DNA of 14,367 nt from a virus (Duplodnaviria > Heunggongvirae > Uroviricota > Caudoviricetes), in the IMG/VR virus record IMGVR_UViG_2562617113_000020, positions 1-14,367 of that record. One strand, given 5' to 3'. The position numbers and the translations under genes are program-made. The stretch's first letter is position 1. Each line of letters opens with the position of its first letter. Below are positions 10,460 to 14,367 of this stretch, in pieces. The notes beneath the pieces are model-generated. The model searched no databases. It was given only the letters and a program-made list of their open reading frames with translations, and was not told where the DNA came from.

Positions 10460-10479
10460 AACCGTAGCACGTCGTATGC
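10459..10479 (+). repeat. Direct repeat copy 1 (AAACCGTAG-CACGTCGTATGC), immediately after invertase stop
   Basis: Matches 11479-11500 (AAACCGTAGGCACGTAGTATGC) at 20 of 22 aligned positions; the pair brackets the GIY-YIG gene. Confidence 0.4.
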
Positions 10480-10516
10480 AAGATCGTGCTGCGGTTTATG
10501 CTTATCACTTAAAGAC

Positions 10517-11290
10517 TCAAAAATTAGGTGAGTAACGGACCGGGGACATAGCTCCTTTTTTTCTTAATTCATCTGGTATTTTTTTTCCAAGATAAAGATT
10601 TGCTATTTCAGGTGGGGCTTCTCGACCTTCAAAACCATAGCGAGAACTTTGTGTTGCCTCAAAGTCAGTATCTTCGTCCCAGTATTTCATCGTAGGGAAA
10701 TTTTCACGTGTTGATTTGAGCCATTTATCAGCAATGAAAACCCCTCGAACGATCCCCCTTACAGTAGCAAGAATGACTTCTGCTTGGCTGGCGCGAGAGA
10801 CATTAATGCGCCAGCTAAATCGAACCGCATCATAAAGCTCTGAATCCTTTGCACTTCTGTTAACGGAAATCATTAATGCTTTATGATGAAATGTTATGGT
10901 TTCGGGTTGATATGTTGCTATCAACTCTTTGACATGCGCGGCGCCGAATTCATTGCTGCCAGCACCATTCATGATATTCGTTAACCCAGGGTAGGCATCA
11001 ATAAGTGCTGCTTCAACTTCGTACGCCGTCTTTTCATCAGTCATTCCGTGTCGATGGATGACGTGGATAACTTCAAGTCCTGCTAACCTTATTTCTCTGA
11101 TTTGCTTTAGCTTGTTGCTCAGTAACTCGTCATCATCAGCCGCTGCCACCTCACCGCGCATATGGGCAAATACGCGGTTACCTTTGCCTTTCCCTACATA
11201 GAAGGTGCTTCCGTCCCTAGGATCAATCAATCGGTATACATACCAGCCAAGGTGTTCAATTACTCCAGAAGGAAACTCAGTAATATCCAT
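10517..11290 (-). CDS. Stand-alone GIY-YIG nuclease-domain protein with ~160-aa C-terminal region of unknown function
   Basis: N-terminal motifs YVYRL-(10 aa)[10 protein letters not shown] with downstream His, Glu (EVEAAL) and Asn (NIMNG) at spacing typical of the GIY-YIG catalytic core; ATG at 11288-11290 (MDITEF...) preferred over the upstream TTG at 11339-11341; no recognisable SD. Confidence 0.75.
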
Positions 11291-11341
11291 TTTGCAATAT
11301 CTGTGAATTATTTGTGAGACGCATATTAATGAACATTGCAA

Positions 11342-11692
11342 GGGCTCACAACTAGTAGTGTTGAGAAAGCCACCGGGAAAATGAGGCTAACCCTTTGAAT
11401 TTACATAGCGCAAAAAGATACCTTTCCTCATAATGTGATCTAATTTTATGTTTCGTTTGATGATTGGACCGGTCTCGAAAACCGTAGGCACGTAGTATGC
11501 GTTAATTTATGAACAAACTACTTGTCTGCTGTTTTTCTGTCATTAGTCGTATATAGAATGATTCTCTATGCCTAACAAAGCATCACCAGTGCTAGATTAC
11601 GTTGTAGTCACTGTTTAAATATCCAGATAAAACATTTCCTTCTGGGTTGAATGAGTGATAGAGTTTCACCCATTAGACCCCTTGGAGGAATT
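11342..11692. promoter_or_regulatory. AT-rich divergent intergenic region, presumed to hold promoters for the GIY-YIG gene (-) and the methyltransferase gene (+)
   Basis: 350 bp without credible ORFs between divergently oriented genes; RBS GGAGG at 11684-11688 before the methyltransferase ATG (11693). No promoter hexamers confidently assigned. Confidence 0.3.
11479..11500 (+). repeat. Direct repeat copy 2 (AAACCGTAGGCACGTAGTATGC)
   Basis: Imperfect direct copy of 10459-10479, located in the intergenic region upstream of the GIY-YIG gene. Confidence 0.4.
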
Positions 11693-13124
11693 ATGTCTGA
11701 ATTTGAAGTGTTGGCACAGCATCTGCTGAAGGAAGCCGAGGCGGAAGAAAAGCTGCGACAGGAAAATGATAAAAAGCTTATCGAGAAAGTGCTGGAAATC
11801 TATGATCAGAAGTATGTGGCTGAATTACTGAGAAAAGTCGGAAAAAATGAGTGGAGCCGTGAAACCATTAACCGCTGGATTAATGGCAAGTGTTTACCAA
11901 AATCGTTGACTTCAGTAGAAGAGTCTCTTCTGCGTAAGATGCTACCAGAACCACCTGCAAACCATCCGGAATATGCTTTCCGCTTCATTGACTTATTTGC
12001 TGGAATTGGAGGGATACGGAAAGGTTTTGAGGCCATTGGAGGCCAGTGTGTTTTTACCAGTGAATGGAATAAAGATGCTGTGCGTACATACAAGGCCAAC
12101 TGGTTTAACGATGAACAGGTGCATAAATTCAATCTCGATATTCGGGAAGTCACGCTGAGTGATAAAACCGATGTATTGGAAACGGATGCTTATGCATATA
12201 TTGATGAGCATGTGCCGGATCATGATGTGCTTCTTGCGGGGTTCCCGTGCCAGCCATTTAGCCTTGCTGGTGTTAGTAAGAAAAACTCACTTGGTCGTGC
12301 GCATGGTTTTGAATGTGAAGCACAAGGAACACTTTTTTTGACGTGGCACGTATTATACGAGCAAAAAACCGGCAATTTTTGTGCTGGAAAATGTCAAAAA
12401 TCTGAAGAGCCATGATAAGGGTAAAACTTTCAAAGTCATTATGGAGACCCTTGACGAGCTGGGCTACGAAGTTGCCGATGCTGCAGAAATGGGAAAAAAC
12501 GATCCAAAGATTATCGATGGGAAGCATTTTTTGCCTCAGCATCGTGAACGCATTGTTCTGGTCGGATTTAGACGAGATCTGAATATTCACAAGGGGTTTA
12601 CCTTGCGTGATATCAGTCGTTTTTATCCGGAACACCGCCCATCATTTGGTGAATTGCTGGAGCCTGTAGTCGACAGTAAATATATACTTACGCCAAAACT
12701 ATGGGAGTACCTTTATAACTACGCCAAAAAGCATGCAGCCAAGGGGAATGGTTTTGGCTTTGGGTTGGTCAATCCTGAGAATAAGGAAAGCATTGCACGC
12801 ACACTTTCTGCCAGATATCACAAAGACGGATCAGAAATTCTTATTGATCGTGGTTGGGATATGGCAACGGGAGAGGCTGACTTTATGAATGAGAGTAACC
12901 AGGCTCGTCGACCACGCAGGCTGACTCCCCGAGAGTGCGCACGCCTTATGGGGTTTGAAAAACCTGGAGGGAAACCATTCCGTATTCCGGTTTCAGATAC
13001 TCAGTCATATCGGCAGTTCGGTAACTCCGTTGTGGTGCCAGTATTTGAAGCCGTTGCCAGACTTCTGGAACCCTATATCCTCAAAGCTGTTTCTGCTGAT
13101 GCTGGTAAGACTGGGCAGCCTTGA
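11693..13124 (+). pseudogene. ecoRIIM: EcoRII-like / Dcm-like C5-cytosine DNA methyltransferase (CCWGG family); frame interrupted by two -1 indels in a T7 tract (12333-12339) and an A6 tract (12363-12368)
   Basis: Motif I FxGxGG ([15 protein letters not shown]) and motif IV PCQ ([12 protein letters not shown]) in the first frame; [15 protein letters not shown] and C-terminal [11 protein letters not shown] in a second frame; the intervening frame reads [10 protein letters not shown], so two single-base deletions explain the split (ORFs 11651-12415 and 12381-13124). Confidence 0.85.
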
Positions 13125-13130
13125 GAACAC

Positions 13131-13153
13131 CTCCCGGCCTTTTAAGCCGGGAG
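13131..13153. terminator. Hairpin between the convergent M and R genes (CTCCCGGC-cttttaa-GCCGGGAG); possible bidirectional terminator
   Basis: 8-bp perfect stem between the two stop codons (13122-13124 and 13159-13161); no flanking U-tract on either side. Confidence 0.35.
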
Positions 13154-13158
13154 TCAGC

Positions 13159-14367
13159 CTATGATAGTTCAGCGTAAAGTTCTATCAGCTCAGTAATGAA
13201 TGCTCCGAGCGTTATTAATTCTTCTCTAACTGCTTCTGGGTATTTTTTATGTAAAGTTGATGGTACAACGAGTCTGACACCCGCATCTTTCATTTCTCGG
13301 TATTGTGCTGAAGAAACACCTTCTTGCAGCGTAAATAAATGTACCTGATGGATTTTATCTGCTTCATTCAGTATCTGACGCCAGCGATCTTTGCAGGTGG
13401 TCTTTACTGCCAGCATACGTAAGTTTTCTACAGGAAATTCAACGTTATGATATGCCTCTGCTGAAGGAAACAGGAAATCTGGTTTTTTATTACCTTCAGT
13501 AACTGCCTGAGTGGAGAAATGCCGTAGTCCGTGCTCGATAAAAAGCTTCTCTAGGTGAAGTTCAAGTGATTTACCTGCCCTTGATTTACGTCGATTACTG
13601 ACAGAGTTGGCTAATGCAATAAACTCATCTACAGAATCGAATCCTTTCTTAATAATATCAAGAACATGTAATTCCTCGACGAGTAGAAAAATATCATACT
13701 CGACACGCCGACGGTCAATCAGTTGCTCATCTGGATCCTTGGAGTTTTTAGCATAATGGCCAGCAGCATATTGAATAATTTCGTTTCCAGAAGGAAAACG
13801 CTTCTTCCAGTCTTCAGGAATAACATATTTATGATTTACTGGAGTTTGCTGAAGAGACAATCCGCCCAAAATTTGTCCGGCAGGGCCGGAAATTAGGGTT
13901 CCAGGTATGATTTCGCCAATAGCAGACTCGATGATATCCTCTTCATCGGGATTGACGCAGACCCATATATCTACCTCGGAACAGTCAGTGTTCTGTTCGT
14001 TTAACCTGAAGGCAAGAATTGTGAGGGCTCCTGTATTTTCAGGGTTCTGTAATGGACTTCCTCTCCCCCAGCGCGTAATTCTTTTTTCGCTTCGGGTCTT
14101 ACCAAAATAACGGTTGTTGTAATAAATTGCGCGTGCTTGGGTATCAGGGCAATCATGGGATGATACATGCGCAGTAAGGAAGACTGAAGGGTTCAGTTCG
14201 CGAGTATGATTGATAGATGGAAAAAGCTTTTCAACGATATTTGAGGGGATATAAAGTCCGACCTGATGGCCACCTGTTGCGCCTGTGTCGTTTGCAGAAA
14301 GGCGTTTGATGTAGATAAAGTAATTCCCGCTTGCGATATCAAGCAGCCAGTTATGAAAAACCGACAT
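13159..14367 (-). CDS. ecoRIIR: EcoRII-like type IIE restriction endonuclease (CCWGG), apparently full length (402 aa)
   Basis: Product MSVFHNWLLDIASGNYFIYIKRLSANDTGATGGHQVGLYIPS... corresponds, from memory, to the R.EcoRII N-terminal effector domain and C-terminal catalytic domain; convergent with the methyltransferase as in EcoRII; start codon is the last three bases of the window. Confidence 0.9.
   Translation of the reverse strand: MSVFHNWLLDIASGNYFIYIKRLSANDTGATGGHQVGLYIPSNIVEKLFPSINHTRELNPSVFLTAHVSSHDCPDTQARAIYYNNRYFGKTRSEKRITRWGRGSPLQNPENTGALTILAFRLNEQNTDCSEVDIWVCVNPDEEDIIESAIGEIIPGTLISGPAGQILGGLSLQQTPVNHKYVIPEDWKKRFPSGNEIIQYAAGHYAKNSKDPDEQLIDRRRVEYDIFLLVEELHVLDIIKKGFDSVDEFIALANSVSNRRKSRAGKSLELHLEKLFIEHGLRHFSTQAVTEGNKKPDFLFPSAEAYHNVEFPVENLRMLAVKTTCKDRWRQILNEADKIHQVHLFTLQEGVSSAQYREMKDAGVRLVVPSTLHKKYPEAVREELITLGAFITELIELYAELS

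Follow-up and report, generated by a model that had tools for sequence, protein, structure and literature searches.

The DNA analysed here, a stretch of 14,367 nt from the IMG/VR virus record IMGVR_UViG_2562617113_000020 (hereafter the window), is the right-hand part of an Escherichia coli prophage of the e14/SfV kind, and its terminal region at 10460–14367 holds three genes, those of a GIY-YIG nuclease, a C5 cytosine methyltransferase and an EcoRII-type endonuclease. We consider it very probable that in this region a temperate phage carries, at its integrase-distal end, an accessory ('moron') slot occupied by two independent nuclease defences that are both of characterized type: the modification-dependent nuclease CMoRE, also known as PD-T4-3, and a restriction-modification (R-M) pair. 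This kind of phage has the Mu-like baseplate genes, the invertible fibre segment and the pin invertase that precede the slot. The closest complete genome, that of E. coli R12, was used as the reference and is 99.4% identical to the window over 9800–14367.

Two nuclease systems in one slot

The GIY-YIG protein is identical at 253 of its 257 residues (98%) to the crystallized CMoRE of E. coli O157:H7 (PDB 9U75), the C-terminal sensing domain included, and aligns with PDB entry 9U7U at an E value of 1.1e-150. The PADLOC model of PD-T4-3 (PDLC04031) covers residues 1–256 (E 1.6e-140), the Pfam family LEM-3_GIY-YIG is matched at 2.7e-14, and the GIYxY...YIG catalytic motif in the N-terminal domain (WYVYRL...) is identical to that of the crystallized enzyme. 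CMoRE has been described as a type IV restriction endonuclease that binds and degrades DNA containing 5-hydroxymethylcytosine (5hmC) or glucosyl-5hmC (5ghmC), neither binds nor cuts DNA containing cytosine or 5-methylcytosine (5mC), and protects against T-even phages (PMC12923530); PD-T4-3 was also active against T-even-like phages in a native clinical isolate (bioRxiv 10.1101/2024.12.20.629700). Given its 98% identity to the characterized enzyme, the protein of the window would be expected to show the same 5hmC/5ghmC-dependent cleavage and protection against T-even phages. The O157:H7 enzyme (WP_000355475.1; PDB 9U75 and 9U8D; Nat Commun 2026, PMC12923530) is likewise a single-gene system whose nuclease domain, of the GIYxY-YIG type, is accompanied by a C-terminal sensing domain, and its gene also sits after pinE, in the same slot. 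The two differ by four amino acids and in what follows them, which is the R-M pair here and a serU fragment with an AraC-family gene there. An HNH or McrA domain is absent from every open reading frame (ORF) of the cargo according to Pfam, and the likeness to McrA, which holds the corresponding position in e14, is positional and functional only.

The endonuclease, whose start codon is formed by the last three bases of the window, aligns over its full length with R.EcoRII (PDB 1NA6; E 6.7e-242, ~86% identity) and conserves the catalytic-region segments PDFLFP and VKTTCKDRW. Both of its domains are recognized by Pfam (EcoRII-N, PF09217, 5.5e-60; EcoRII-C, PF09019, 2.4e-71), and PADLOC assigns it to REase_II (E 1e-232). 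The methylase falls within the Dcm/EcoRII subfamily, as the intact R12 protein scores 927 bits against NCBIfam NF007772 (cutoff 710). From the ~86% identity to R.EcoRII, specificity for CCWGG and a need for at least two such sites are to be expected. The two genes are convergent, the same arrangement being found in 80 loci of other species, and the pair is a mobile two-gene unit present in hundreds of plasmids and many genera. Convergent M and R genes, an EcoRII-N/EcoRII-C endonuclease and a DNA_meth_N methylase are the features shared with the EcoRII system of the plasmid N3 type (R.EcoRII, PDB 1NA6, and M.EcoRII). Unlike that system, which resides on a conjugative plasmid, the pair in the window is chromosomal and prophage-borne, its DNA identity to plasmid EcoRII alleles is only ~80%, and its methylase frame is broken.

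If expressed from the prophage, the two systems would between them act on different kinds of invading DNA. CMoRE is predicted to recognize 5-hydroxymethyl- and glucosyl-hydroxymethyl-cytosine through its C-terminal domain and to degrade DNA of the T-even type while ignoring cytosine and 5mC. The methylase would place a C5-methyl group on the CCWGG sites of host and prophage DNA, and the endonuclease, with its N-terminal effector domain and C-terminal PD-(D/E)XK domain, would cut incoming DNA that holds at least two unmethylated CCWGG sites. The systems would be compatible because CMoRE neither binds nor cuts 5mC DNA. They would also complement each other, since the modification sensed by CMoRE is the very one with which T-even phages evade classical R-M. 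The locus offers a well-bounded example of layered nuclease defences in a temperate E. coli phage, one directed against DNA with hydroxymethylated or glucosyl-hydroxymethylated cytosine and the other against unmodified DNA.

A previous sequence-only reading of the window had reported a GIY-YIG gene, a methyltransferase and an endonuclease, and nothing else, in mixed orientation. The orientations are indeed minus, plus and minus, and there is no further ORF of at least 40 amino acids (aa) in 10460–14367 outside these genes; the methyltransferase, on the other hand, is not one intact gene in the window. It is split after the PCQ motif into ORFs at 11651–12415 and 12381–13124 by two 1-nt homopolymer deletions lying 30 nt apart, T8 to T7 at 12333 and A7 to A6 at 12363, which are the sole indels relative to R12 in 4.6 kb. 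It is conceivable, and we hold it as a tentative possibility, that these deletions are real and the islet partly decayed, with an endonuclease that is either silent or tolerated only through chromosomal Dcm acting on the same CCWGG sites. The endonuclease is intact next to the broken methylase, and two nearby T runs (T7 at 10556 and T8 at 10579) are unchanged from R12, so that the shortening of homopolymers is not uniform and a real pseudogene could be present. A true loss of the methylase would be survivable because Dcm methylates the same site and protects against parasitism by EcoRII (PMC3424554).

Several observations point the other way. The double deletion occurs in none of the 263 E. 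coli records carrying this methylase allele. A single deletion is present in one record, AH02, whose endonuclease is annotated as frameshifted too, as is typical of an error-prone assembly. The IMG/VR contigs, R12, GF50 and CT01 all have an intact methylase. Two independent neutral deletions would also be unusual at a divergence from R12 of only 0.6%. Elsewhere in the same window, tnpC of the IS66-family element (1015–2586) is broken: compared with its counterpart in phage PPwrbA_EC3734, it has one substitution but four indels, a ratio that points to indel errors in the assembly. We therefore regard an assembly error as more likely than a real mutation, though not overwhelmingly so. Phase variation as a common state of the methylase was rejected, as the frameshifts are shared by none of the 263 records. 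Should the methylase be dead and the endonuclease be living on host Dcm, the locus would show, in nature, an orphan methylase that has 'adopted' a restriction enzyme.

Dcm also bears on whether the R-M pair is mainly a selfish addiction module, its place in the islet reflecting self-propagation and its post-segregational killing stabilizing the prophage. Post-segregational killing has been discussed for EcoRII, a classic R-M system of plasmids, and Dcm, which has the same target, protects against EcoRII (PMC3424554). The mobility of the pair among plasmids and genera also fits such a role. The dcm gene is near-universal in E. coli. We find this explanation unlikely, since Dcm, normally present in this species, neutralizes killing of the EcoRII type, and since the pair shares a nuclease-rich slot with a neighbour whose anti-phage activity has been demonstrated. 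Addiction and defence are not mutually exclusive in any case: as part of the favoured scheme, in which the pair serves as a nuclease defence, it may additionally stabilize the prophage by post-segregational killing, an effect that Dcm should blunt in E. coli.

Position in the phage genome and turnover of the cargo

The relation of the cargo to the phage is clearest in R12, where the order is glaH, X' with the ssrA core, a hypothetical gene, int, then further genes up to the tail, pin, CMoRE, M, R and finally X with ssrA. The endonuclease start codon lies 235 bp from the 3' end of ssrA, and a 188-bp direct repeat (92.6% identity), made up of the last 36 nt of ssrA and ~150 nt of downstream sequence ('X'), has one copy beside ssrA and the other beside glaH, just outside a 259-aa ORF and the integrase. 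From these attachment-site (att) repeats, the element therefore spans integrase to endonuclease. An internal ssrA core dividing the prophage from the cargo was rejected, as no copy with up to nine mismatches exists in the window. The same block occurs in CT01, where 'plasmid unnamed3' (NZ_CP081794.1), a circle of 43,671 bp annotated as a plasmid, is a complete e14/SfV-like phage genome with the order early genes, lysis, head, tail, acyltransferase, CMoRE, M, R, DinI, integrase and dusA fragment; the cargo travels there with a different, dusA-type integration module. Four IMG/VR viral contigs (L111, L128, L144 and L177) carry pin, CMoRE, M and R together with the hairpin described below. In GF50 and 19AR0656 the same cargo stands behind a lambdoid siphovirus tail with no pin, and GF50 resembles R12 in its integrase (95% identical), its xis-like protein (identical) and its early genes, as would fit an exchange of structural modules within one phage lineage.

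These data place the end of the prophage past 14367 and not before 10460. The suggestion of the sequence-only reading that more cargo might continue past the window is not borne out: in all relatives examined, the cargo ends at an att-core fragment ~235–270 bp past the endonuclease start. What comes after that fragment is either ssrA or the hairpin with other phage or island DNA behind it: CT01 has the DinI-integrase module there, and 19AR0656 a further integrase along with hypothetical genes and a P4-like element. An initial interpretation of 19AR0656 as tandem elements at ssrA was withdrawn, the junction being X and the ssrA core fused to the hairpin.

It is very unlikely that the cargo is instead a resident chromosomal islet by ssrA, a remnant of an older element with different prophages merely beside it. 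Three observations might suggest such an islet. Its right-hand junction is constant, the same 82 bp and X coming after the endonuclease without exception in complete E. coli genomes (263 records, equal to the number with this methylase allele); X by the endonuclease is 94–98% identical to native ssrA-downstream sequence in many E. coli genomes; and the cargo adjoins either a Mu-like or a lambdoid tail module, which are unrelated to each other. The lack of an ssrA core between cargo and tail genes, the enclosure of everything from integrase to endonuclease by the R12 att repeats, and the recurrence of the block both in a circular 43.7-kb phage genome with a different integrase and in IMG/VR viral contigs all contradict a resident islet. 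The integrase, xis and early genes common to GF50 and R12 fit an exchange of the structural module in one lineage. The sequence X itself is duplicated at both ends of the R12 prophage (L001 24653–24804 and L002 15558–15707), includes a terminator-like hairpin (AAAAAGCCCGC..GCGGGCTTTT), and is also found inside the CT01 phage beside the endonuclease; this duplication and the likeness to native DNA suggest that host flanking DNA was captured into the phage. In R12, the 259-aa ORF (L002 15774–16553), flanked by the integrase and the glaH-side att repeat and matched by neither Pfam nor PADLOC, stands across attP from the islet and may mark another cargo position.

Slot contents were compared in complete E. 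coli genomes, behind pin or the last fibre gene, and in a census of 80 IMG/VR viral loci sharing the hairpin of the slot's right-hand edge, a hairpin that often stands beside a DinI-integrase module. In e14 of K-12, pinE is followed by mcrA and then by the icd fragment that marks attR, as the sequence-only reading had noted. O157:H7 Z1769 and E1648 hold CMoRE, a serU fragment and an AraC-family gene; other E. coli genomes hold an acyltransferase, CMoRE and a lipase-family gene, or a 215-aa protein with no known identity, or a DUF6602 protein matching PD-(D/E)xK and NucC nuclease models, and in some the slot is empty. About 35 of the 80 viral loci are empty as well. CMoRE stands alone in six and with an acyltransferase in two, CMoRE, M and R occur together in four, one has M and R without a CMoRE ORF, and a sixth locus has R upstream and is too short to place an anchor gene. 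A 231-aa DUF4145 protein is found in nine, and among the singletons are a polytopic membrane protein, an HtrL/YibB protein, a hexapeptide acetyltransferase, an SRAP protein and proteins of 331–517 aa with no known identity. Counting the empty form, at least 10 distinct contents were seen in the E. coli genomes and IMG/VR loci.

The locus is thus not invariant, being filled by mcrA, CMoRE alone, DUF6602, DUF4145 or surface-modification genes, or by nothing. The idea of a swappable immunity locus holds as far as the swapping is concerned; the position is a general moron or lysogenic-conversion slot that also takes acyltransferases, HtrL-like and membrane proteins and is often empty. It is variable and nuclease-rich, and not exclusively defensive. 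PADLOC gave no match for ten alternative cargo proteins from IMG/VR, and mostly none for the alternative cargo of E. coli, the exceptions being the DUF6602 nuclease and a weak PDC-S64 match. The DUF4145 protein, the commonest alternative cargo (loci L100, L110, L126, L131, L134, L139, L148, L155 and L156), has a Cys-rich N-terminal region and no PADLOC match, and is a candidate for an uncharacterized defence gene. Together with the DUF6602 nuclease and the proteins of 215, 331, 365, 502 and 517 aa, it makes the alternative cargoes cheap candidates for new defences. In E1648 (L007 1–3202), a second, inverted copy of pinE with its hairpin adjoins an Avs2 (AVAST type 2) gene, a further case of a defence gene next to a pin.

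Among known elements, e14 is of the same phage kind, with a ymfQ-type baseplate, invertible fibres and pinE, and has a modification-dependent nuclease directly after pin and before attR. It differs in that McrA is an HNH enzyme unrelated to CMoRE, in its integration in icd and not ssrA, and in lacking the R-M pair; its homology with the window stops at the pin stop codon. As the same slot holds McrA in K-12 and CMoRE here, the position has repeatedly recruited modification-dependent nucleases, and the recently characterized CMoRE acquires a natural setting in the swappable slot after pin of e14/SfV-like phages. Phages of the SfV group have the same architecture, with accessory genes for O-antigen modification between the fibre genes and the attachment site. 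The cargo of the serotype-converting phages SfV, SfII, SfI and SfIV is gtr or oac between the fibre genes and attP-int, whereas that of the window is nuclease defence; the integration site differs too, and the likeness extends to acyltransferases carried in the slot by relatives of the window. P2-like phages and P4-like satellites reportedly have a fixed position where diverse anti-phage systems replace one another (Rousset et al. 2022). The concept is the same here, in a different phage family and position, and with a slot that also holds non-defence morons and is often empty. A literature search for this specific hotspot returned nothing relevant, and as far as we found the pairing of CMoRE with an EcoRII-type system and its place in this phage family have not been described before. 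CMoRE, EcoRII-type R-M and prophage accessory hotspots are all already known kinds, and the current understanding of them is not overturned.

Several points weigh against a phage-borne defence slot in working order. The cargo has no DNA match in sequenced phages (INPHARED set), which also hold no close protein homologue of CMoRE or R.EcoRII, only distant ones of at most 45% identity (CMoRE, in jumbo phages) and at most 40% (EcoRII); the evidence for packaging therefore rests on a circular assembly and IMG/VR predictions and not on virion DNA. Many of the alternative cargoes have no recognizable defence function. The broken methylase frame, if real, would mean that the R-M module is not a normal self-contained system in this strain, and given the IS66 insertion the prophage may be defective and the islet may now be chromosomally fixed. 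Finally, promoter-like and terminator-like consensus matches in the region are no commoner than in shuffled sequence, and a claim of promoters was dropped on these counts.

Joints between the modules

The islet is composite, and its homology to relatives breaks at defined points. Relatives with pin only end at 10461–10496 and those without pin start at 10457–10459; relatives with CMoRE only end at 11487–11500, and plasmid EcoRII systems (80% identity) start at ~11611. Strong hairpins flank the cassettes. The same ~39-nt hairpin is found at every cassette boundary in relatives, each copy fused at GAA(A/C)CCG to a fragment resembling tRNA or transfer-messenger RNA (tmRNA); beyond the two copies of the window (Table 1), it occurs at L012 9666, L097 28057 and 32220, L015 630 and 1654, and L008 5013 and 6034. 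The copy between pin and CMoRE is a recurrent module junction and likely a bidirectional terminator. A permissive Rfam search gave a single match, to CssrB at 10437–10493, which at 32 bits against a gathering score of 76 is sub-threshold and was not accepted as a small RNA gene.

At the second joint, the 19-mer that overlaps the partial hairpin copy (left arm and loop) corresponds exactly to the anticodon arm of tRNA-Ser(CGA), serU, a gene annotated as tRNA-Ser in 5422 of 5426 E. coli genomes. In O157:H7 Z1769 and E1648, the 19-nt sequence runs on into the whole 3' half of serU at loci other than serU itself (including L003 6639–6720, and L007). Neither the window nor the CMoRE-only loci contain a tRNA or tmRNA gene according to ARAGORN, and the serU piece is only a fragment. 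It forms a fossil att junction carried with the CMoRE cassette. At the right-hand edge in 19AR0656, CT01 and the viral contigs, X and the ssrA core are joined to a complete hairpin copy, which GGCTGGTGAAC follows, and the empty form of the slot is pin, hairpin and GGCTGGTGAAC. The CMoRE cassette of locus L015 looks cleanly inserted, with a duplicate of the hairpin. A repeat finder missed the direct repeat on either side of CMoRE owing to an indel, and the repeat was found by eye and by fuzzy matching. In the 80 R-M loci of other species, CMoRE never lies within 6 kb of the pair.

From these joints we conclude that the islet probably arose by the successive joining of two att-end modules, one ending in the serU anticodon arm after CMoRE and the other in the 3' end of ssrA with native downstream sequence after the endonuclease, with the same hairpin at the joints. 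Modules would be gained, lost and exchanged between phages at these joints, and the islet would travel with the phage genome. The hairpin itself may belong to a recombination site, or it may be only a moron terminator whose short homology serves for joining. A bolder proposal, which we rate as improbable, is that the slot is built by a specific and repeatable mechanism and not by random mosaicism, each cassette ending in a tRNA or tmRNA att fragment fused to the hairpin at GAA(A/C)CCG. Such fragments come from serU (its anticodon arm) and from ssrA (its 3' end, with 150 bp of native DNA from downstream), and there is also a T-arm-like GGCGGAGTTGAAACCGC. If this were true, cassettes would be captured with their att junctions, for example by aberrant excision or by integrase-mediated recombination at the hairpin, and the phage would have an integron-like way of stacking defence genes.

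That the GIY-YIG gene is a homing endonuclease or another selfish mobile gene and not a defence nuclease, as the frequency of this domain in homing endonucleases, the annotation of its distant jumbo-phage homologues (39–45% identity) as homing nucleases and the short direct repeats on both its sides could suggest, is scarcely credible for a protein that matches the PD-T4-3 defence model end to end and is 98% identical, over its full length and including the modification-sensing C-terminal domain, to a proven 5hmC/5ghmC-dependent restriction enzyme.

Layout and base composition of the window

Table 1. Features of the window, in order of position
Feature	Positions	Strand	Remarks
IS66-family element	1–2616		tnpA, tnpB, tnpC
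Mu-like DNA-circularization and baseplate protein genes	2659–7698
Tail-fibre and fibre-assembly region	7702–9878		contains the invertible segment
pin-type serine DNA invertase	9905–10459	+	Pfam Resolvase (3.3e-52), HTH_7
Hairpin ('HP') between convergent pin and CMoRE	10459–10497		-23.6 kcal/mol, z -5.2 (+); -19.8 kcal/mol, z -4.1 (-); likely bidirectional terminator
GIY-YIG nuclease CMoRE/PD-T4-3	10517–11290	-	257 aa; PADLOC, Pfam and PDB matches
AT-rich divergent intergenic region, CMoRE/methylase	11291–11692		GC 37.6%; holds the cargo-module junction; no ORF of at least 40 aa
Fossil att junction	11466–11503	+	19 nt of serU anticodon arm (11466–11484) overlapping a partial hairpin copy (11480–11503)
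C5 cytosine methyltransferase, Dcm/M.EcoRII subfamily	11693–13124	+	477 aa when intact; Pfam DNA_meth_N and DNA_methylase, divided between the two ORFs
GC-rich hairpin between convergent methylase and endonuclease	13131–13153		-16.3 / -19.1 kcal/mol, z -2.9 / -2.7; likely bidirectional terminator
EcoRII-type (type IIE) endonuclease	13159–14367	-	402 aa, intact; Pfam EcoRII-N, EcoRII-C

At the DNA level, the Shigella phages SfII, SfIV and SfV share 97% identity with the window in the baseplate and tail genes. The invertase gene carries the annotation pinE in R12 as well as in many E. coli genomes. No conserved phage gene follows it before the slot, of which it forms the left anchor without belonging to the cargo. 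Inverted repeats of 20 nt at 7986–8005 and 9824–9843 (95% complementary) bound a 1.8-kb invertible segment, which is pin-controlled, contains alternative fibre C-termini and fibre-assembly genes, and has a guanine-plus-cytosine (GC) content of 0.42–0.52, below that of the baseplate genes. The IS66-family element sits, by comparison with R12, 23 bp before the end of the tape-measure gene, and with this insertion the prophage in the strain of the window is probably defective.

The GC content is 0.433 in the cargo (0.38–0.49 in 500-bp windows) and 0.578 in the baseplate genes (0.534–0.61), with no overlap between the two ranges, and GC at third codon positions is 0.36–0.40 in the three cargo genes against 0.61–0.66 in the baseplate genes. 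Base and codon composition thus differ in the direction described by the sequence-only reading, which had called the region visibly richer in AT than the tail and baseplate genes. That reading had placed the shift at the invertase stop, and the cargo is indeed lower from there on, but the drop has two steps: the fibre segment and pin (~8000–10459) are already at 0.48–0.49, and the invertase stop marks the second. CCWGG sites, the predicted target of the R-M pair, number 1.0 per kb of cargo, against 2.5 per kb over the remainder of the window.

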